DNA from: Escherichia coli | GTDB lineage: Bacteria; Pseudomonadota; Gammaproteobacteria; Enterobacterales; Enterobacteriaceae | Strand: one strand, 5' to 3' | Length of the DNA: 64,000 bases | Assembly: GCF_003334355.1 (NCBI RefSeq) | Contig: NZ_QOWP01000023.1 | Shown here: one piece after another, positions 19,067 through 54,452 of the stretch | Position numbering within the stretch: the stretch's first letter is position 1 | Layout: every line of letters begins with the position of its first letter | Notes under the pieces: model-generated | Database searches by the model: none | What the model saw: only the letters and a program-made list of their open reading frames with translations | What the model was told of the DNA's origin: nothing | Translations under genes and position numbers: made by a program

Positions 19067-20491
19067 CTATGTGAAGTGACGGTGAAGTCGAAGCGAGGCC
19101 AGCACGCCACCTTCCTGCACGTTGCGCAGCGTGACTTCGCCGTTAAACAAACGGGCGACCTCACTGACGAACGCCAACCCCAGACCGCTGCTTTTTTGCC
19201 CATTTGCACGCGGCAAAGAGTAAAAGCGTTCAAAAATACGTGACAGCGCGTAGTCAGGAATACCACTACCGGTATCCAGCACCTTAAGGGCGACGTGTTC
19301 CTGATCCACTTCGGCGCTTAGCGTTATGCGACCGCTCTCGGGGGTAAAATCGATGGCGTTATCCAGTAAATTCCCCAGCGCCTGCTCCAGTAACGCCGGT
19401 TCAGCAGCAACATTAACCTCAGTGGGCATAACATGTAGAGTGATGTTTTTTTCTGCCAACTGCACGGTGCGCGCTTCGCTGACGCGGCGAAATAATGCCG
19501 CCACATCAACAACAGTCAGAACGACTTCCTGACGATTCTCCAGTCTTGCCTGGCGTAGTAACGTTTCTACCAATGCCTGCATACGCGCATTTTGCGTCAG
19601 AATGTTGTCGGTAAAACGAGCCACCACTTCCGGTGGCGGACCTTCGCGTAAAATTTCCGCCGCGCCACGAATCGCCGCCAGTGGGCTTTTTAGCTCATGG
19701 GTTAACGCATAAACATACTGCTCAATATAGTTTTTCCCTTCCAGCTTCACGCGCATACTTTCCAGCGCCTGCGCAAGCTTACGCAACTCGCTACTGCCGA
19801 GTTCAGGAAGAGGAACGGGCTTATTGTCAGTGACGGAATCGGCATAGCGAGTGAGCCGGGCAATGGAGCGGTTGATCCACCAAACCATGCCTGCGCCAAT
19901 CACCAGTGCAATCCCCAGCAAAATGGCGCTGGCCCATAAAATTCGCCGCTCGCTACGCTTAATGACCGGAGCCATCGCCGCGTTCGGTTTGCCTACGCTC
20001 AAAACGCCAATAAGCCGCGAGCCGTCCATAATCAGCGCGGCAACATACATCACCGAACTTTCGGGATCGGCAGGATTTTGCAACGTGCTGCGCGCACCAT
20101 ACTGACCACGCAACGTTAGCCAGACGTCATTCCAGCGCGAATAATCCTGCCCAACGGCTTTATTTGCCGAATCGAACAATACTTTACCCTGCGAATCGGT
20201 CATATAGACATGATATTCATTGCGCACTTTGTTAATGCCACCGATATTGGCGCGAAACGGGCGATGTTGTAGCTGATTAAACGCCTGCGCCAGTTGCCCA
20301 TGCGTTGGGTCCCCAGAGAGCAAATCGGGACGCGCCAGCTCCGCCAGCAACGTTGCGGTATCGATTAACGTCCCCTCCGTTGCTCTTCGCACGCCCGGTT
20401 TAACTTCTTTGACAAAAATAGCCAGTACGAACCAGGCCGCCACCGCCACCAGTAAAAAATAGCCCAGCAGCAACCGCATGCCGATACGCAT
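19067..20491 (-). CDS. creC: Sensor histidine kinase CreC
   Basis: 474-aa ORF with an H-box (LTHELKSPLAAIRGAAE) and ATPase region. Confidence 0.95.
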   Translation of the reverse strand: MRIGMRLLLGYFLLVAVAAWFVLAIFVKEVKPGVRRATEGTLIDTATLLAELARPDLLSGDPTHGQLAQAFNQLQHRPFRANIGGINKVRNEYHVYMTDSQGKVLFDSANKAVGQDYSRWNDVWLTLRGQYGARSTLQNPADPESSVMYVAALIMDGSRLIGVLSVGKPNAAMAPVIKRSERRILWASAILLGIALVIGAGMVWWINRSIARLTRYADSVTDNKPVPLPELGSSELRKLAQALESMRVKLEGKNYIEQYVYALTHELKSPLAAIRGAAEILREGPPPEVVARFTDNILTQNARMQALVETLLRQARLENRQEVVLTVVDVAALFRRVSEARTVQLAEKNITLHVMPTEVNVAAEPALLEQALGNLLDNAIDFTPESGRITLSAEVDQEHVALKVLDTGSGIPDYALSRIFERFYSLPRANGQKSSGLGLAFVSEVARLFNGEVTLRNVQEGGVLASLRLHRHFT

Positions 20492-21180
20492 TACAGGCCC
20501 CTCAGGCTATATCCCATGCCGCGATGAGTATTAATCGGTGAAAGATCGGGGTTGATGGCGCGCAGCTTGGCACGCAACGTTTTAATGTGGGTATCAATGG
20601 TGCGATCGTAGGTGTCCTGCGCATCTTCCCACACGCTATCCATTAGTTGCTGGCGGGACCAGACGCGGCCTGGCGACTTGAGTAACGTCTTCAGCAATAA
20701 AAACTCATACCGCGTCAGCGTTAATGGCGTGTCAAACCAGCTGATCTGCGCCGCGGGTTCATTCAATTCAAAATGACCAATACGGATGACGGGAGACGGC
20801 GACGAGAACTTCTTCACCCGACGCAGTAAGGTGCGCACCCTGGCGCACACTTCGCGGGGTGAAAACGGTTTAGCCACATAGTCGTCAGCGCCAATTTCCA
20901 GCCCAAGCAGGCGATCGACCTCTTCACTTCGGGCCGTCAGGAACAGTACAGGTAACGCCGGATGGAGCGCCAGTAACTGGCGGCATAATTCAAAGCCGCT
21001 GATATCAGGCAAACCAACATCGAGAATCATGACGTCGGGAGCCTGCTGGCGAGCTTTATCCAGCACCGGCAAGCCTCGCTCAAAGACCTCGACGGCAAAA
21101 CCTTCCTGCTGCAACATGTAGACCAGCGTGTCGGCTATCCCTTGCTCATCTTCCACTAACCAGACCGTTTCCCGTTGCAT
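20491..21180 (-). CDS. creB: Response regulator CreB
   Basis: 229-aa OmpR-family ORF; stop overlaps the creC start. Confidence 0.95.
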   Translation of the reverse strand: MQRETVWLVEDEQGIADTLVYMLQQEGFAVEVFERGLPVLDKARQQAPDVMILDVGLPDISGFELCRQLLALHPALPVLFLTARSEEVDRLLGLEIGADDYVAKPFSPREVCARVRTLLRRVKKFSSPSPVIRIGHFELNEPAAQISWFDTPLTLTRYEFLLLKTLLKSPGRVWSRQQLMDSVWEDAQDTYDRTIDTHIKTLRAKLRAINPDLSPINTHRGMGYSLRGL

Positions 21181-34122: not shown

Positions 34123-34386
34123 ATGATCGATCTGGAAAACCAGGAACGGGAGATTATCAATTTAATGTTCAGCCAGCGTATTTCCTGGCTAGCCGCCGTG
34201 CGTATCAGGCATAAATTATCGCTTGCTGAAGTAAGTAAAATGTTAGGTATCTCGATTAATTCTCTAAAACAGATCGAAAAGACGGAACGGCTTAGCTCAA
34301 ACATCAAAAGCAAAATGGCAGAAATTTATGGTTGTCCACCAGAGTTGCTGATATGCCCTTCCTGGATGACGGCTGAACATAAATGA
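34123..34386 (+). CDS. Small HTH-domain protein (possibly an N-terminal remnant of the HipA-like kinase YjjJ/HipH)
   Basis: 87-aa ORF with GGAAGGA Shine-Dalgarno 6 nt upstream; helix-turn-helix-like segment LSLAEVSKMLGISINSLKQIE; sits where K-12 carries yjjJ as I recall. Confidence 0.55.
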   Translation: MIDLENQEREIINLMFSQRISWLAAVRIRHKLSLAEVSKMLGISINSLKQIEKTERLSSNIKSKMAEIYGCPPELLICPSWMTAEHK

Positions 34387-39105: not shown

Positions 39106-40656
39106 ATGCCCACTTCTGATGAAAATGCACTGCAACAACGTTGCCAGCAAATTGTCACCAGCCCAGTGCTTAGCCCGGAGCAGAAGCGCCATTTTCTGGC
39201 ACTTGAAGCAGAAAACAATCTGCCTTATCCGCAGCTGCCTGCCGAAGCCCGCCGTGCGCTGGATGAGGGTGTAATCTGCGATATGTTTGAAGGTCATGCG
39301 CCGTACAAACCGCGCTATGTCTTACCCGATTACGCCCGTTTTCTGGCGAACGGTTCCGAATGGCTGGAGCTGGAAGGCGCGAAAGATCTTGATGACGCAC
39401 TCTCTCTGCTGACCATTCTTTACCACCACGTACCGTCGGTCACATCGATGCCGGTCTACCTGGGGCAACTGGATGCGTTGTTGCAACCGTATGTTAGAAT
39501 TCTAACACAAGACGAGATCGATATTCGAATAAAACGTTTCTGGCGTTACCTCGACAGAACCCTGCCAGACGCCTTTATGCACGCCAATATCGGCCCGTCT
39601 GATTCGCCCATTACCCGTGCAATCTTACGTGCAGACGCAGAGTTGAAGCAGGTTTCACCGAACCTGACCTTTATCTACGATCCTGAAATCACCCCTGATG
39701 ACCTACTGCTGGAAGTGGCGAAGAACATCTGTGAATGTAGCAAACCGCACATCGCCAACGGTCCGGTGCATGATAAAATTTTCACAAAAGGGGGCTACGG
39801 GATTGTGAGCTGTTACAACTCACTGCCGCTGGCGGGTGGTGGCAGCACGCTGGTACGCCTTAACCTGAAAGCCATTGCCGAGCGCAGCGAATCGCTGGAT
39901 GACTTCTTTACGCGCACTCTACCGCACTACTGCCAGCAGCAGATCGCCATCATTGATGCGCGGTGTGAATTCCTCTATCAACAATCACACTTCTTTGAGA
40001 ATAGCTTCCTGGTGAAAGAAGGGCTGATTAACCCTGAACGTTTTGTGCCAATGTTTGGCATGTATGGGCTGGCGGAAGCGGTTAACTTGCTGTGTGAGAA
40101 AGAAGGGATTGCCGCGCGCTACGGTAAAGAAGCCGCCGCAAATGAAGTGGGTTATCGCATCAGCGCGCAACTGGCGGAGTTTGTCGCCAATACCCCCGTG
40201 AAATATGGCTGGCAAAAACGCGCCATGTTACACGCACAGTCGGGGATCAGTTCCGATATCGGCACCACGCCGGGCGCGCGTTTACCCTATGGCGATGAGC
40301 CAGATCCGATCACCCATCTGCAAACTGTCGCCCCGCATCATGCTTATTATTATTCCGGCATCAGCGACATTCTGACGCTCGACGAAACCATCAAACGTAA
40401 TCCGCAGGCGCTGGTACAGCTTTGCCTCGGTGCCTTTAAAGCCGGAATGCGTGAATTTACCGCCAATGTCAGCGGTAACGATCTGGTTCGCGTTACCGGT
40501 TATATGGTGCGTTTGTCGGATTTAGAAAAATATCGCGCCGAAGGTTCACGCACCAACACCACCTGGCTGGGCGAAGAAGCCGCACGCAACACTCGTATTC
40601 TGGAACGCCAGCCGCGCGTGATAAGCCATGAACAGCAGATGCGCTTTAGTCAGTAA
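39106..40656 (+). CDS. yjjI: Glycyl-radical-enzyme-like protein YjjI
   Basis: 516-aa ORF; C-terminal RVTGY motif (variant of the glycyl-radical fingerprint RVSGY). Confidence 0.9.
39492..39507. promoter_or_regulatory. DeoR operator (deoP1, O1) inside the yjjI coding sequence
   Basis: Perfect palindrome TGTTAGAATTCTAACA; centre is 599 bp from the O2 centre, matching the known O1-O2 spacing. Confidence 0.65.
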
Positions 40657-41491
40657 GATTATCCCCTTCTCCTGCGTTGACGGGCCAGGCAGTCGTCTGG
40701 CTCTGTTTTTGCAGGGCTGCAATCTGCGCTGCAAAAACTGTCACAATCCGTGGACGATGGGGCGCTGTAATCATTGCGGAGAGTGCGTGCCACAGTGTCC
40801 GCATCAGGCGTTGCAGATTGTTGACGGCAAAGTGGTGTGGAACGCTGCGGTCTGCGAGCAGTGTGATACCTGCCTGAAGAGGTGTCCGCAACATGCCACG
40901 CCGATGGCGCAATCCATGAGCGTGGACGAAGTGCTTAGCCATGTCCGCAAAGCGGTGCTGTTTATTGAAGGGATAACGGTAAGCGGCGGCGAAGCCACGA
41001 CCCAACTGCCGTTTGTAGTGGCGCTGTTTACTGCTATCAAAAACGATCCGCAACTGCGCCATCTCACCTGTCTGGTGGACAGTAACGGCATGTTGAGCGA
41101 AACCGGCTGGGAAAAATTACTCCCGGTGTGTGACGGCGCAATGCTCGATCTCAAAGCATGGGGTAGCGAATGTCATCAACAATTAACCGGACGCGATAAT
41201 CAGCAGATTAAGCGCAGCATCTGTTTGCTGGCAGAGCGCGGCAAGCTGGCGGAACTGCGTTTGCTGGTAATCCCTGGCCAGGTGGATTATTTGCAACACA
41301 TCGAAGAACTGGCGGCGTTTATCAAGGGACTTGGCGATGTTCCGGTACGCCTGAACGCGTTTCATGCCCACGGCGTGTATGGCGAGGCGCAAAGCTGGGC
41401 GAGCGCCACGCCGGAAGACGTTGAGCCGTTGGCTGATGCATTAAAGGTGCGCGGGGGGGGCCGGTTGATATTTCCGGCGCTGTATTTGTGA
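40628..41491 (+). CDS. yjjW: Radical SAM glycyl-radical activating enzyme YjjW
   Basis: 287-aa ORF with CNLRCKNC (CX3CX2C) radical-SAM motif plus two ferredoxin-like Cys clusters ([24 protein letters not shown]); overlaps the yjjI 3' end. Confidence 0.9.
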
Positions 41492-41493
41492 CA

Positions 41494-41998
<505 letters not shown>

Positions 41999-42007
41999 AA
42001 GGGTAAA

Positions 42008-42790
42008 CTACCCACTAACGCTAAACAACGCATACGTATTATTAAGCAACACTTCGGCAATCTCATCTTCTGGTTCCGGGCGCAACTCGCAAAGCACGTC
42101 AAACACCCGCACAGCCTGTTCCGGTCGGTTAGGCTGCCCCTGAAAGCCGTTGAGCGGCATATCCGGCGCGTCGGTTTCCAGCAACAACGATGCCAGCGGT
42201 AATTTTGCGATGACATCGCGGGTTTTACTGGCGCGTGGATAGGTGATAGTACCGCCTACGCCGATTTTGTAGCCCAGCTGTACAAACCGCTCGGCCTGTT
42301 GCAGGCTGCCGGAAAAACCGTGAACCACGCCAGTGCACGGTAAATCGTGACGTTTAAGATGCATCGCCAGTTTGTCGTGTGTACGCCGGGAATGAAGGAT
42401 CACCGGCAGATCGTAGCGTTTCGCCAGTTTCAGCTGTTCGTCGAGTAACCACTGCTGCCTCTCAAATTGCGGATCGTCGCCGAAGAGATCCAGACCGATC
42501 TCCCCCACCGCCACCACCTTCGCCGGACGCCTTTCCAGCGCCTGCTGTAGCTGATCAAGAGACACATCGCTATGTTTTTCCAACATCCCCGGATGCAACC
42601 CCAATGCGGCATACAGCGGTTGATATTTTTCCGCTAACGCCTGCACGCGGGCAAAATTTTCCGCCTCTGTCGCCGGAACAATGATCTTGCCTACGCCCGC
42701 TTGTGCCGCGCGTTGCAGGCTGGCCTCTTCATCGCCACTAAACGGCGGGAAATCAAAATGGCAGTGGGTATCGATAAAACGGCAAATCAA
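42008..42790 (-). CDS. yjjV: TatD-family metal-dependent hydrolase YjjV
   Basis: 260-aa ORF with IDTHCHFDF metal-binding motif. Confidence 0.9.
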   Translation of the reverse strand: MICRFIDTHCHFDFPPFSGDEEASLQRAAQAGVGKIIVPATEAENFARVQALAEKYQPLYAALGLHPGMLEKHSDVSLDQLQQALERRPAKVVAVGEIGLDLFGDDPQFERQQWLLDEQLKLAKRYDLPVILHSRRTHDKLAMHLKRHDLPCTGVVHGFSGSLQQAERFVQLGYKIGVGGTITYPRASKTRDVIAKLPLASLLLETDAPDMPLNGFQGQPNRPEQAVRVFDVLCELRPEPEDEIAEVLLNNTYALFSVSG

Positions 42791-43860
42791 GCCAGATCCT
42801 CATTGTTAAATGTCGGGTCGTTCGCCTGCGGAGCATCGCTCACTTCGGCAACCAGCGTATCGTTGGCGACTGGCGCAGGCGGAATAACGATCGATTCCGG
42901 CGTCACCACTGGCACCAGATGGCGGGTAAGCGGCGCTTTTTCAGTTAATAGCTTGCCAACCGTGGCGAGGAAATAACGACCGCATAAACGCCCAAGTTTA
43001 TAGTCTTCACGCAGCGCCGGAATCCGACTGCCAAGCGCGATACTATGTAATGGTTTCGGTGGATAAATTTCGAATATCCGCAGCTTGCCCGGTGGTTTCT
43101 CAATAAATTGCTGAATGTCACGATAGCTGGTTTCATGATGCTGCACCAGATTGACCAGCGGCTGCAGGCTACTGTCACCCAGCCAGCGTTCCATGCGTTT
43201 GAACCACTGCGGCGTGTAGTACATTTGTGACGGCACAGTGCGGATGACGACCAACGTTTTAGCGCCCTGCCTTGCCGCCTCTTTAACCGGAATCGCATCA
43301 CTGATCCCGCCATCCAGGTAGTTAATGCCTTCCAGCGACACTCCGCTACGATAAAAGCCAGGTATCGCACTGGAGGCGCGAATCACATCCAGCCAGTTTT
43401 GTTTGGTTGGTAAAAAGTAATTAGGCGCGTAGTCATCCTGACGACAGGCGCACATATAAAACGATTTGCCGCTGTCAAACAACCGCGCGGCGGTATCCAT
43501 TTGCAACGGCATCTGGCTTGCGGTGGCCTCCACCAGCCAGTCGAGATCGATAAGATTTCCTCCACGGACAAAGCGCAATGGATCGAAAAATTCGCGTTTT
43601 GTGGTATAGCACATGATGACTTTGCGCGCGTAACCGGGCTGATTGCAGATAAACGCCGAGAGGTTCTGCGCCCCGGCAGATGTGCCGAGATAAAGATCGA
43701 AAGGATTAAACTGCGCGCGCATAAACTCATCCAGCACGCCAGCCGTGAAAATTCCACGCTGTCCGCCGCCTTCGCACACCAGAGCTATTCGTCCAGGCTG
43801 GAACGGCCTTAGCGACAACGGCGCAATATTACCAAGCGTTACAGGTATTCGCTGCCCCAC
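42787..43860 (-). CDS. yjjU: Patatin-like phospholipase YjjU
   Basis: GGGQRG oxyanion motif and GTSAG nucleophile elbow; probable GTG start (357 aa); 4-bp overlap with yjjV. Confidence 0.85.
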   Translation of the reverse strand: MGQRIPVTLGNIAPLSLRPFQPGRIALVCEGGGQRGIFTAGVLDEFMRAQFNPFDLYLGTSAGAQNLSAFICNQPGYARKVIMCYTTKREFFDPLRFVRGGNLIDLDWLVEATASQMPLQMDTAARLFDSGKSFYMCACRQDDYAPNYFLPTKQNWLDVIRASSAIPGFYRSGVSLEGINYLDGGISDAIPVKEAARQGAKTLVVIRTVPSQMYYTPQWFKRMERWLGDSSLQPLVNLVQHHETSYRDIQQFIEKPPGKLRIFEIYPPKPLHSIALGSRIPALREDYKLGRLCGRYFLATVGKLLTEKAPLTRHLVPVVTPESIVIPPAPVANDTLVAEVSDAPQANDPTFNNEDLA

Positions 43861-45267: not shown

Positions 45268-46857
45268 TTAATGCTCGCGGGTCTGGTGGAACTGAACGTC
45301 CGGATAACGTTCCTGCGCCAGGCGCAGGTTGACCATGCTGGTAGCGATGTAAGCGAGGTTATCGCCGCCATCAAGCGCCAGTTGGCTTTCGTTCTTACGC
45401 TTGAACTCTTCGAATTTCTTCGCGTCTGCACATTCTACCCAGCGGGCGGTGGCAACGTTGACTGATTCATATACTGCTTCAACGTTGTATTCGCTCTTCA
45501 GGCGCGATACCACCACATCAAACTGCAGCACACCAACCGCACCAACGATCAGATCGTTGTTGGAGATTGGACGGAACACCTGCACCGCGCCCTCTTCGGA
45601 AAGCTGTACCAGCCCTTTGAGCAGCTGTTTTTGCTTCAGCGGATCTTTCAGGCGGATGCGACGGAACAGTTCTGGCGCGAAGTTCGGAATACCGGTGAAC
45701 TTCATCATCTCACCCTGGGTAAAGGTGTCGCCAATCTGAATGGTGCCGTGGTTGTGCAGGCCGAGGATATCGCCCGGATATGCTTCTTCAACGTGCGAAC
45801 GGTCACCTGCCATAAAGGTCAGCGCGTCGGAGATCACCACATCTTTCGCAGTGCGCACCTGGCGCAGCTTCATGCCTTTTTCATATTTACCGGATACCAC
45901 GCGCATAAACGCCACGCGGTCGCGGTGTTTCGGGTCCATGTTGGCCTGAATTTTAAATACGAAGCCGGTAAATTTGTCTTCGCTCGCCTCTACGGTACGG
46001 GTATCAGTCTGACGCGGCATCGGCGCAGGAGCCCACTCCACCAGGCCATCCAGCATATGATCGACACCGAAGTTACCCAGCGCAGTACCGAAGAATACCG
46101 GAGTGATTTCGCCCGCAAGGAACAGCTCTTTGTCGAACTCATTAGACGCGCCTTTCACCAGTTCCAGTTCGTCACGCAGCTGCTGTGCCAGATCTTCACC
46201 GACCGCTGCATCGAGATCCGGGTTATTCAGCCCTTTAACAATGCGGACTTCCTGAATGGTGTGGCCTTTACCGCTCTGATAGAGATAGGTTTCGTCTTTA
46301 TAAAGGTGGTAAACGCCTTTAAACAGCTTGCCGCAGCCGATCGGCCAGGTGATCGGTGCGCAGCCGATTTTCAGCTCGTTCTCAACTTCATCGAGCAGTT
46401 CCATCGGGTCGCGGATATCACGGTCAAGTTTGTTCATAAAGGTGAGGATCGGCGTGTCGCGCAGACGGGTAACTTCCATCAGCTTGCGGGTACGATCTTC
46501 AACACCTTTTGCGGCGTCGATAACCATCAGACAGCAGTCCACCGCCGTCAGGGTACGATAGGTATCTTCCGAGAAGTCTTCGTGCCCCGGGGTGTCGAGC
46601 AGATTAACCAGGCAATCGTGATACGGAAACTGCATCACAGACGTAGTAATGGAGATCCCACGCTGCTTTTCCATCTCCATCCAGTCCGACTTAGCGTGCT
46701 GGTTAGAGCCACGGCCTTTTACTGTACCGGCGGTCTGAATGGCCTGTCCGAACAGCAGCACCTTCTCGGTGATGGTAGTCTTACCGGCGTCCGGGTGAGA
46801 AATAATGGCAAAAGTGCGGCGCTTCGCCACCTCTTGCAAATAAGGAGACAACGTCAT
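45268..46857 (-). CDS. prfC: Peptide chain release factor RF3
   Basis: Start trimmed to [28 protein letters not shown] (529 aa). Confidence 0.97.
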
Positions 46858-47639: not shown

Positions 47640-48086
47640 TTACATACTGATTGGCAACGCCATGATGATGGCGTCTTCGCGACCGTCCGTGGTGGGGTAG
47701 TAATTGCGGCGAATCGTCGCCTCGTTAAAGCCTAAACTTTCGTACAGGGCAATGGCGGCAGCGTTTGAGGCACGGACTTCCAGCCAGAGCGTCGCCACGC
47801 CGCGTTTTTCCAGTTCATCGATCAGATGTTCCAGCAGCGCCCTTCCCAATCCCTGACGCTGATAGTCAGGATCGACCGCAATATTGAACAATGTAGCTTC
47901 ATCCAGCACCACTTGCGTAATCGCAAACGCCGCCATTTTGCCGTTTTGCGTTAACTGAAAGTTGAGATAACGCTCGCCCTGGTTGCTGGCAAAGGTTTTT
48001 TCACTCCACGGAAAGGCGTGGGCGCGTTGTTCAATGTGGTAAGCCGCTGGTAAATCAGTCGTTTCGAGGGAAGAAATCGTGTTCAT
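47640..48086 (-). CDS. rimI: Ribosomal protein S18 alanine N-acetyltransferase
   Basis: 148-aa GNAT ORF ([13 protein letters not shown]). Confidence 0.93.
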
Positions 48087-48468
48087 ATGTGCAAATTTGT
48101 TGCCATAACGCGGCGCGTGCCGTTGGGTTTGCCCGTAATTCGGTGAGCGCCGGTGATGCCACCTGAGCGCCTTCCAGTGATAGCGGTTCGTCAGTACCCA
48201 ACCGCCAGCTGTTGCAGCGACTGCCTTGCGGCAGCATCGCGATTTTTTCTGGCGTCAGTTGCAGCACTTGATCGGGGCTGACGGTTAATGCGCGCAGAAC
48301 ATCGCTCACTAAAGGATCAGTCAGGGCGGGAAGATCGTTTGCCACCATCACCAGACGGACGTGTGCCGGGATCGCAATGGCAATCTCCCCCTGCAACGCG
48401 CCAGGGCGACGCAGCGACCACTGGGTAATGCCCAGTTGCTGTAACTGCCAGTCTCGTCGGGATGTCAT
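48055..48468 (-). CDS. holD: DNA polymerase III psi subunit
   Basis: 137-aa ORF starting MTSRRDWQLQQLGITQWSLRRP; 32-bp overlap with rimI. Confidence 0.93.
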   Translation of the reverse strand: MTSRRDWQLQQLGITQWSLRRPGALQGEIAIAIPAHVRLVMVANDLPALTDPLVSDVLRALTVSPDQVLQLTPEKIAMLPQGSRCNSWRLGTDEPLSLEGAQVASPALTELRANPTARAALWQQICTYEHDFFPRND

Positions 48469-49614: not shown

Positions 49615-49772
<158 letters not shown>

Positions 49773-49910: not shown

Positions 49911-49997
49911 GCGAAGGTGGCGGAATTGGTAGACGCGCTAGCTTCAGGTGTTAGTGTCCTTACGGACGTGGGGGTTCAAGTCCCCCCCCTCGCACCA
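49911..49997 (+). tRNA. leuV: tRNA-Leu (anticodon CAG)
   Basis: 87-nt sequence GCGAAGGTGGCGGAATTGGTAGACGCGCTAGCTTCAGGTGTTAGTGTCCTTACGGACGTGGGGGTTCAAGTCCCCCCCCTCGCACCA; cloverleaf with long variable arm, anticodon loop UUCAGGU, encoded CCA. Confidence 0.97.
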
Positions 49998-51238: not shown

Positions 51239-51916
51239 TTAATAGGGATGCAACACATTACTTGCTTCGCAATGCCGCATACATAACAGAATATCTGCGG
51301 CCTCCAACAACCCTGCATCAGAACTGACGCCCAGTTTCGACATCACATTAAATTTATGTGCACGGATCGTTTTGATATTGCGTTTAAGCTGCTCGGCAAT
51401 TTGTGTCATTGAGTAGCCACGCGACATAAAGCGCAATATTTCTCTCTCCGTGGGGCTTAGCGTCCGGCTTTGGTTAATGTACCACTGATTGTTCAGTCGG
51501 TCGGTCGCCTGACGTACACCATTTAATGACAAAAAGAGTTCCTGATGAAAAATCTCCAGCGTTGACGCTTTACTTAATACACCGTCCAGCGGTGATGGCG
51601 ACAATGAACCAATCAGCCGAGCTTCAATATCATCATCCGCAATAACTAAACGCCGGGTACGCGGAAACTTAATCGCCAGTTCAGTCAGGCAAGATAATCC
51701 CTCTCTGCGCTCACTTCTCATGGCAGAAAAAGAAAAAATGACCGCCGCAAACGAGATCCGCGACATGGCATCCTGAAATGACTCCTGACTGGTATAGGTA
51801 TGGAGCTTATAAGGGTTACCCGCAAACTTTCTGAATAAACTCTCAATACCGATACTACTCATGACGCATTTTTCTATGAGTGCGACATTTCTCTTCTTAA
51901 TTCGGCTGTGTTCCAT
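51239..51916 (-). CDS. bglJ: LuxR-family transcriptional regulator BglJ
   Basis: 225-aa ORF with C-terminal LuxR-type HTH ([25 protein letters not shown]). Confidence 0.9.
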
Positions 51917-52599
51917 TCTGCGGCATCTCCATAAACAGAAGGCAAGTTAAGTTCTCTTGCACCCTGCGCGCTATTTATCCATGCATACATTTCAGCGTTG
52001 CTGTGAATTGCCAGTCGACGCATCGCACTGTTTTTTTGGGCGCTGATAGTTTTATTACTTTTCTTAAGCAACGAAGCTATCTGGTTGATGCCCCATCCTT
52101 TACCTAATAGCCGCAGTACCTTGCGCTCTGAAAGAGTGAGAATGACGGAGCGATAGCTAAAATCATGAGTTTCAGTCATTGCCGGAGAGGTCAGCATGGC
52201 GCTGATACGCTCTGCGTGCGTATTGCCGGAACGTACGGTCTTGACCAGATTCTCAATGGGTTCAACATCAGACAATAACGTCGCCGTAGGGCACATGAGC
52301 AATTCTACTGCCTGGGAATACCAGGAGCGTGACACCATGAAAACCCAGTGAATTTCCCGATATTGTGAGATTAAAGAATAATAATGTTCACAAACAGAAC
52401 GTGGATCTTCACTTTCACCGGCTAAATCAGCAATGACTAATCCGGAACGACGTAATTGTAATAAGGTAAGGTCCTCCGCAGAGGCGCTGGATATTATTTC
52501 ATATTCAGGGAAGTGAGTCCTCATGACCTCTTTTAACCCTGCTTGCATAACAGGTATTTTACTGATAACAATTCCATTTTTGCAGCATCCTGGCAACAT
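51874..52599 (-). CDS. yjjQ: LuxR-family transcriptional regulator YjjQ
   Basis: 241-aa ORF with LuxR-type HTH ([23 protein letters not shown]); overlaps bglJ by 43 bp. Confidence 0.88.
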
Positions 52600-53217: not shown

Positions 53218-53988
53218 ATGCAAACTGAGCAACAGCGAGCCGTAACACGGCTTTGTATCCAGTGTGGATTATTTCTTTTGCAACATGGTGCGGAAAGCGC
53301 GTTGGTTGATGAGCTTTCCTCACGACTGGGTCGGGCGCTGGGAATGGACAGCGTCGAAAGTTCTATCTCTTCGAACGCCATAGTGCTGACAACCATTAAA
53401 GATGGGCAATGCCTGACATCGACACGTAAAAATCACGATCGCGGCATTAATATGCATGTGGTGACTGAAGTCCAGCACATTGTGATTCTGGCGGAGCACC
53501 ATCTGCTGGATTACAAAGGCGTAGAGAAACGATTTAGCCAAATTCAGCCATTACGTTACCCAAGATGGCTGGTAGCCTTAATGGTTGGCCTTTCTTGCGC
53601 CTGTTTCTGTAAACTCAATAACGGTGGCTGGGATGGTGCCGTCATCACCTTCTTTGCCAGTACGGCCGCGATGTATATCCGCCAGCTACTGGCACAACGT
53701 CATCTTCATCCACAGATCAACTTTTGCCTCACCGCTTTCGCCGCCACCACTATTTCCGGTTTGCTTTTGCAACTTCCCACCTTCAGCAATACACCCACCA
53801 TTGCAATGGCCGCCAGCGTTCTGCTGCTGGTGCCGGGCTTTCCGTTGATTAATGCCGTCGCCGATATGTTTAAAGGCCACATCAATACCGGACTGGCACG
53901 CTGGGCGATCGCCAGTCTGCTGACACTGGCTACCTGCGTCGGCGTGGTGATGGCACTGACGATTTGGGGGCTACGCGGATGGGTGTGA
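53218..53988 (+). CDS. yjjP: ThrE-family membrane protein YjjP
   Basis: Start trimmed to [17 protein letters not shown] (256 aa); multi-pass. Confidence 0.85.
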
Positions 53989-54452
53989 TCGAGTTTCTGT
54001 TTGCATTGGCGCAGGATATGATCCTCGCCGCCATTCCAGCGGTCGGCTTTGCGATGGTGTTCAACGTTCCCGTTCGGGCATTACGCTGGTGTGCGCTGCT
54101 TGGCGCGATTGGTCATGGTTCCCGAATGATCTTAATGACCAGCGGGCTGAATATTGAGTGGTCAACCTTTATGGCTTCTATGCTGGTCGGCACCATTGGT
54201 ATTCAATGGTCGCGCTGGTATCTGGCGCATCCGAAAGTGTTTACCGTGGCGGCTGTTATCCCTATGTTTCCTGGCATATCAGCTTATACTGCAATGATTT
54301 CGGCGGTAAAAATCAGTCAGCTAGGCTACAGCGAACCGTTGATGATTACCCTGTTAACCAACTTTCTTACAGCTTCATCAATTGTTGGTGCGTTATCCAT
54401 CGGTCTTTCCATTCCTGGATTATGGTTGTACCGCAAGCGCCCTCGCGTATAA
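53979..54452 (+). CDS. yjjB: Membrane protein YjjB (partner of YjjP)
   Basis: Start trimmed to [14 protein letters not shown] (157 aa); overlaps yjjP by 10 bp. Confidence 0.85.

Follow-up and report, generated by a model that had tools for sequence, protein, structure and literature searches.

As many as one in three prokaryotic genes overlaps an adjacent one, mostly in the −4 and −1 arrangements (Brown and Wade 2025), and among the 2,987 same-strand gene pairs of Escherichia coli K-12 there are 707 (24%) that lie at distances of −8 to +6 nt (Huber et al. 2023). Termination–reinitiation has been described at NTGA (−4) and at TAATG or TGATG (−1) junctions (Huber et al. 2019, 2023; Brown and Wade 2025). 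According to the spacing studies reviewed by Brown and Wade (2025), translational coupling is efficient from −4 to +3 nt and is hurt more by overlap than by spacing, and in the Tian and Salis series, as summarized in that review, coupling is absent at −25 nt; Huber et al. (2023) take a similar view of spacing for native pairs and regard ribosome scanning as rare if it occurs at all. Longer overlaps were considered by Palleja et al. (2008), whose criteria for a genuine case are orthologue length, cross-species conservation, and selection in two frames, and who credit a 32-bp holD/rimI overlap to Carter et al. (1993) and give 56 bp for Salmonella and Yersinia. The same paper discusses convergent genes that share stop codons and cites work on overlapping response regulator and kinase genes (Cock and Whitworth 2007).

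The window analyzed here (the whole stretch of DNA, 64,000 nt) corresponds to approximately 99–100 min of the E. coli chromosome. It spans the thr operon region, creABCD, the deo operon, prfC, holD, and dnaTC and continues past yjjA, and it is collinear with K-12 MG1655 in reverse-complement orientation, with about 98% identity. Using BLAST, we transferred to the window the RefSeq annotation of NZ_CP195164.1, a strain 99.8% identical to it, and checked each CDS for an intact frame, which reproduced the gene names, coordinates, and lengths of all seven overlaps in the original prediction:

holD 48055–48468 and rimI 47640–48086, minus strand; shared 48055–48086, 32 nt
yjjI 39106–40656 and yjjW 40628–41491, plus strand; shared 40628–40656, 29 nt
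yjjQ 51874–52599 and bglJ 51239–51916, minus strand; shared 51874–51916, 43 nt
yjjP 53218–53988 and yjjB 53979–54452, plus strand; shared 53979–53988, 10 nt
yjjU 42787–43860 and yjjV 42008–42790, minus strand; shared 42787–42790, 4 nt, TTGA
creB 20491–21180 and creC 19067–20491, minus strand; shared base 20491, 1 nt, TAATG
rob 21877–22746, plus strand, and gpmB 22743–23390, minus strand; convergent, shared 22743–22746, TTAA

All seven overlaps are genuine, and none results from a mis-called start codon. We consider them ordinary junctions between adjacent genes, of which the short ones would permit reinitiation and the long ones are dual-coding segments whose downstream genes would initiate independently and weakly (probability about 0.8). 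Most of the junctions are internal to operons that belong to the core genome of E. coli, and their genes are presumably co-transcribed. The overlaps were already known: the identical seven are present in the RefSeq record of K-12 MG1655, entries of Table S2 of Huber et al. (2023) give distances of −10 for yjjP/yjjB, −43 for yjjQ/bglJ, −32 for holD/rimI, −4 for yjjU/yjjV, and −29 for yjjI/yjjW, and holD/rimI has been in the literature since 1993. They hold no novelty, and the analysis has little importance beyond confirming the annotation. Their number is also no greater than expected. The portion of the window with annotation contains 30 same-strand pairs, of which 6 overlap; in a K-12 sample, the first 71 pairs in Table S2 of Huber et al. 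(2023), 18 do (p=0.62, Fisher test); overlaps of at least 10 nt make up 4 of 30 and 5 of 71, respectively (p=0.44), and overlaps of at least 25 nt do not differ in frequency either (Fisher p=0.36). Tight junctions without overlap also occur in the window, at thrB/thrC (gap 0), thrA/thrB (gap 1), and dnaT/dnaC (gap 2). The six same-strand pairs are all co-directional. The convergent pair rob/gpmB, in which both TAA stop codons share the palindrome TTAA, is a common and trivial case of the class discussed by Palleja et al. (2008) and has no bearing on translational coupling or start choice.

Dual coding at holD/rimI

The main overlap lies in a 2.5-kb region (rsmC, holD, rimI, and yjjG) that is matched in 5,425 of 5,426 complete E. 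coli genomes. Its features are as follows:

holD, 48055–48468, minus strand: DNA polymerase III psi subunit, 137 aa; NCBIfam NF005339 matches residues 1–137 of 137
rimI, 47640–48086, minus strand: ribosomal protein S18-alanine N-acetyltransferase, 148 aa; NF007025 matches residues 2–146
overlap, 48055–48086, minus strand: last 10 codons of holD and its TGA; codons 1–10 of rimI and two bases of codon 11
region upstream of rimI, 48087–48105, minus strand: 19 nt within holD, UGG CAA CAA AUU UGC ACA U, A/U-rich

The rimI frame is +1 relative to that of holD (one base downstream). In a scan of one genome per species, in which the 80 closest species listed were all Enterobacteriaceae, RimI is full-length (146–148 aa) in all 80, and all of the 78 with sufficient upstream sequence keep the rimI ATG. 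Of these 78 species, 75 have an overlap of 32 nt; the other three, Salmonella enterica subsp. arizonae and two members of Pseudocitrobacter (L012, L021, and L034; positions 1501–1556), have one of 56 nt. In the 56-nt cases, a synonymous T-to-C substitution in rimI codon 10 abolishes the holD TGA, and psi gains eight residues (RSPRSLAD or similar). Given that the stop codon of holD is lost and the gene is extended at its 3′ end, the published 56-bp variant does not reflect an earlier rimI start. Across the 78 species, the third codon positions of holD have an entropy of 1.35 bit upstream of the overlap and 0.42 bit within it (p=2e-4), and those of rimI have 0.45 bit within it versus 1.12 bit downstream (p=1.6e-3). 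Purifying selection thus acts on both frames within the overlap, and RimI residues 1–7 hardly vary among the Enterobacteriaceae compared. The broad family profiles end short of the overlap, with TIGR00664 stopping at psi residue 125 and TIGR01575 starting at RimI residue 11, so that neither of these broader profiles reaches the shared segment, which is covered by the two enterobacterial-level profiles, NF005339 and NF007025. This locus does not differ in essentials from the one already described (Carter et al. 1993; Palleja et al. 2008), being the same 32-nt overlap, conserved among enterobacteria and not a misannotation. To that description we add the geometry in 78 species, the explanation of the 56-nt form as a 3′ extension of holD, and the drop in synonymous-site variation in two frames.

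Conservation extends beyond the overlap itself. The 19 nt 5′ of the rimI ATG have a mean column entropy of 0.36 bit, compared with 1.02 bit at −75 to −20, and the two Gln codons in this stretch are retained as CAA, synonymous A included, in 91% and 84% of species. This A/U-rich stretch hints at a possible region for initiation independent of a Shine–Dalgarno (SD) sequence, a hint that derives from few synonymous sites (five codons) in related species. A rimI start farther upstream was considered and rejected: an ATG at −57 occurs in about half of the species and is absent in 20, the interval from −57 to −20 is unconstrained, and across the 78 species no in-frame upstream start is conserved, 20 of them having none at all. 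A consensus scan identified a promoter-like site upstream of holD and, on the coding strand, neither a promoter-like nor a terminator-like site between the holD and rimI starts. This arrangement agrees with, and does not prove, transcription of the two genes as one unit; a leaderless rimI mRNA initiated within holD was rejected, as the scan found no promoter-like site there. A weak hairpin adjoins the rimI ATG and is not conserved among the species compared.

Initiation signals and coupling

We scored the anti-SD duplex energy and the minimum free energy (MFE) of the start region for 49 genes. The motifs and the overlap that concern the next comparisons are the following:

creC SD motif, 20498–20503, minus strand: GAGGGG at −12 to −7
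yjjV SD motif, 42797–42801, minus strand: GAGGA at −11 to −7
yjjB SD-like motif, 53966–53970, plus strand: GGGGG at −13 to −9, within yjjP, conserved in four genera
yjjP/yjjB overlap, 53979–53988, plus strand: 10 nt, ATGGGTGTGA
bglJ SD-like motif, 51926–51930, minus strand: GGAGA at −14 to −10, from yjjQ Gly-Asp/Glu codons, in all four genera compared

Duplex energies are −7.5 kcal/mol for creC, −6.1 for yjjV, −8.4 for yjjB (rank 7 of 49), and −6.4 for bglJ, the last being average among the genes scored. Among the same 49 genes there is essentially no SD site for rimI (−1.5 kcal/mol, rank 47, the third-weakest) or yjjW (+0.5 kcal/mol, rank 49, the weakest). The original prediction described the junctions collectively as translationally coupled, which is plausible for the 1- and 4-nt overlaps and perhaps for the 10-nt overlap. 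The spacings of creB/creC (−1) and yjjU/yjjV (−4) fall within the −4 to +3 nt range of efficient coupling. Both pairs are identical in layout to described termination–reinitiation junctions, and both represent the commonest bacterial start/stop layouts, each with an SD inside the upstream gene; this combination suggests that a ribosome ending the upstream gene can restart on the downstream one. The creB and creC genes encode the response regulator and kinase of a two-component system in the creABCD gene cluster and are typical of the overlapping regulator/kinase genes reported by Cock and Whitworth (2007, cited in Palleja et al. 2008), from which we see no difference. At yjjU/yjjV, the TTGA (42787–42790, minus strand) is the canonical NTGA arrangement; the yjjV start is TTG in E. 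coli (42788–42790) and GTG in Salmonella, Kluyvera, and Scandinavium, and the 4-nt NTGA overlap is kept throughout. The yjjP/yjjB pair (−10), whose products are the two parts of a ThrE-family exporter, is borderline in spacing, close to the described reinitiation pairs, and scored as complex-forming at distance −10 by Huber et al. (2023). The conserved SD together with the encoding of two parts of one transporter indicates that it probably behaves similarly. An NTG 15 nt upstream of yjjB is imposed by a yjjP Trp codon and is uninformative.

The holD/rimI (−32), yjjI/yjjW (−29), and yjjQ/bglJ (−43) junctions fall outside the spacing of efficient termination–reinitiation, and rimI and yjjW also lack the SD whose role Huber et al. 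tested. Coupling in the sense of the original prediction is therefore unlikely at these three junctions on the published spacing data, and it cannot operate at the convergent rob/gpmB. The three long overlaps are short dual-coding segments, the first two lying mostly beyond the broader family profiles; in our reading they were fixed before the compared genera diverged and are now held in place because almost any change alters two proteins. For rimI, yjjW, and bglJ, the most probable mode of starting is weak initiation, independent of the upstream gene, on the mRNA they share with it, which we consider likelier than efficient reinitiation: bglJ from its conserved GGAGA motif, rimI from its conserved A/U-rich region, and yjjW from a GC-rich region, the latter two with no SD. 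Independent initiation at rimI and yjjW may be very inefficient, and some dependence on upstream translation is possible for these two genes. Should these SD-less starts prove to hinge on translation of the upstream gene, rimI and yjjW would offer natural material for deciding between ribosome scanning and RNA unfolding, a matter still debated. Given the published spacing data against efficient reinitiation at 29–43 nt, these long overlaps should not be counted as evidence of translational coupling.

One alternative is that the long overlaps are themselves coupling devices, in which ribosomes ending holD, yjjI, or yjjQ step back 26–40 nt and restart at the ATG they have passed, so that the downstream protein would be made at a constant low level relative to the upstream one. 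Such backward restarting would account for rimI and yjjW managing without an SD, and it could draw on the exactness of the geometry (32 nt in nearly all species compared for holD/rimI and 29 nt in four genera for yjjI/yjjW) and on proposals of bidirectional scanning by post-termination ribosomes in phage and synthetic constructs. We nevertheless regard it as unlikely. Coupling drops steeply with overlap in reporter series and is gone at −25 nt, scanning is held to be rare at best (Huber et al. 2023), the exact length is already explained by dual coding, with the TGA lying within the conserved RimI codons Thr10–Asp11, and loss of the holD TGA is tolerated in Salmonella and Pseudocitrobacter.

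Coupling through RNA unfolding, in which the downstream start is locked in structure and opened only by ribosomes translating the upstream gene, is about equally improbable. Downstream genes at tight junctions do have somewhat more structured start regions than other genes (mean MFE −10.7 versus −7.9 kcal/mol, p=0.04), a difference confounded by the higher G+C content of coding sequence relative to intergenic leaders; creC, yjjB, thrB, and yjjW rank 49, 48, 47, and 45 for structure among the 49 genes. However, none of five junction RNAs folds more stably than its dinucleotide shuffles (z −0.9 to +1.0), and the region around the rimI start is A/U-rich with only average structure.

We are similarly doubtful that holD/rimI and yjjI/yjjW form a distinct regulatory arrangement, in which upstream ribosomes would either occlude the embedded SD-less start or feed it backward and thereby keep RimI low and constant relative to psi, or the activase relative to the glycyl-radical enzyme. 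If this were true, the conserved A-rich synonymous sites 5′ of the rimI ATG would be part of the signal.

Start codons of the long overlaps

The yjjI/yjjW overlap joins genes for a glycyl-radical enzyme (yjjI) and its activase (yjjW):

yjjI/yjjW overlap, 40628–40656, plus strand: 29 nt, ATGAACAGCAGATGCGCTTTAGTCAGTAA

The same 29-nt overlap, with near-invariant sequence, is found in Salmonella, Kluyvera, and Scandinavium (four sequences compared, counting E. coli), and almost all YjjW orthologues share a length of 287 aa. The family profile matches YjjW from residue 5 onward, and the YjjI profile stops 12 residues before the stop codon. At yjjQ/bglJ, a BglJ shorter by one codon reduces the overlap to 40 nt in Salmonella, Citrobacter, and a third genus; most BglJ orthologues are 223–225 aa long. 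In standard culture yjjQ-bglJ is silent, and yjjIW probably is as well. For each pair other than holD/rimI four sequences were compared, and these are near-invariant in the overlap. The long overlaps thus show the orthologue length and cross-species conservation by which Palleja et al. (2008) recognize genuine cases, and holD/rimI additionally shows, by entropy, selection in two frames.

These comparisons bear on the possibility that the long overlaps are annotation artefacts, with true starts at bglJ Met19, the GTG at yjjB codon 3, rimI Met51, and the TTG at yjjW codon 28, which would reduce the overlaps to 0 or 4 nt. Most long co-directional overlaps were indeed attributed to mispredicted starts by Palleja et al. 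(2008), the GTG of yjjB would produce a canonical GTGA overlap, an SD is missing at rimI and yjjW, and Met19 is used both by the NCBIfam BglJ model (NF008548, PRK11475), which covers residues 19–225 only, and by the 2006 K-12 annotation, in which bglJ started 12 nt beyond the yjjQ stop. We consider this explanation very unlikely at every junction. No start codon precedes the annotated ATG within the open reading frames of rimI (ATG at 48086–48084), yjjW, and bglJ, and the next in-frame candidates are codon 51, the TTG at codon 28, and codon 19, respectively. On the K-12 chromosome the annotated starts lie at 4608185 for rimI, 4615543 (minus strand) for yjjW, 4602097 (minus strand) for yjjB, 4613481 for yjjV, and 4636696 for creC. 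A rimI start at codon 51 would delete the segment from strand beta1 to helix alpha2 of the GNAT fold, and a yjjW start at codon 28, only three residues short of the CxxxCxxC motif, would remove the conserved N-terminus just ahead of it, each with the loss of conserved parts of the profile. The invariance of the rimI ATG and the constraint on both frames of its overlap also argue against the artefact, as do crystal constructs of active RimI that begin at the annotated Met with MNTIS (PDB 5ISV from E. coli and 2CNM from Salmonella). The ATG, SD, and 10-nt overlap of yjjB are retained in all four genera (E. coli and three others), whereas two of the four have ATA or GTA in place of the GTG at codon 3. 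The proposal that the overlaps constrain the choice of start codon therefore stands for rimI, yjjW, and bglJ, in which later starts lose conserved protein, and the long overlaps call for no re-annotation.

The bglJ start is the one with a mapped position. Conservation of BglJ residues 1–18 holds among orthologues with as little as 48% identity, and M1, A12, E15, and C17 hardly vary; the annotated start was shifted 54 nt upstream by 2014, and Nakahigashi et al. (2016) report a tetracycline ribosome-profiling (TetRP) signal "at the 2014 initiation site" of bglJ. Orthologue conservation and TetRP thus support the overlapping upstream start. The outcome named at the outset as contrary to the overlaps, mapped starts lying downstream of them, is contradicted where data exist, by the bglJ TetRP signal and by the MNTIS constructs of RimI. 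In the TetRP supplements bglJ is the only one of these downstream genes listed, and mapped initiation sites or N-termini for rimI, yjjW, yjjB, yjjV, and creC are absent from the TRAINSPOTTER, Salmonella riboproteogenomics, and TetRP supplements. A BLASTP comparison of BglJ with its paralogue YjjQ aligned only the C-terminal helix–turn–helix domain and is uninformative on the N-terminus, and two papers from the Schnetz laboratory on yjjQ-bglJ do not discuss the bglJ start. As a separate observation, the NCBIfam equivalog model for BglJ (NF008548) still begins at the superseded Met19.

Finally, a programmed +1 frameshift yielding a psi–RimI fusion, with which the +1 frame of rimI relative to holD and the nearly invariant overlap sequence would agree, can be dismissed as highly improbable, given that no recognizable +1 motif (a slippery codon before the stop with an upstream SD, as in prfB) is seen in the overlap, that dual coding explains the invariance, that psi is a full-length chain of 137 aa in all solved clamp-loader structures (PDB 8GIY and others), and that our literature search found no report of such a fusion.

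Other features of the region

Several features of the window differ from K-12 or other strains. The gap between yjjW and yjjV contains 4.8 tandem copies of a 101-nt unit with 94% identity (41503–41990), four of which match the Rfam family naRNA4 (RF02564) of nucleoid-associated sRNAs; the gap is 516 nt in the window and 419 nt in K-12, a difference of about one unit. Kluyvera and Scandinavium have a gene for a NupC-family transporter at the yjjW–yjjV position, of which there is no remnant in the window. Another naRNA4 (RF02564) match, at 49681–49763, lies just upstream of a single tRNA-Leu(CAG) gene (49911–49997) between rsmC and yjjZ, where K-12 and two other E. coli strains have three such genes in tandem (leuQPV in K-12). 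Between lplA and deoD (34123–34386), the window contains an 87-aa helix–turn–helix open reading frame with only weak similarity to NadS-type and other HTH models; at this position K-12 has the 1.3-kb hipH (yjjJ) kinase-toxin gene on the opposite strand, and no hipH remnant was detected in the window. In the near-identical strain G47-1, RefSeq lists as a pseudogene a short internal piece of a NadS-family gene between ettA and nadR, a position that corresponds to 28499–28606 of the window. In strain WP4-S18-ESBL-08 (L001 and L002; NZ_AP022095.1, 4151440–4198300), a large conjugative element carrying traD, mobH, an integrase gene, floR, sul2, aph(3'')-Ib, and aph(6)-Id is inserted beside yjjG at the position of prfC in the window, in which prfC is intact (45268–46857) and free of such an insertion.
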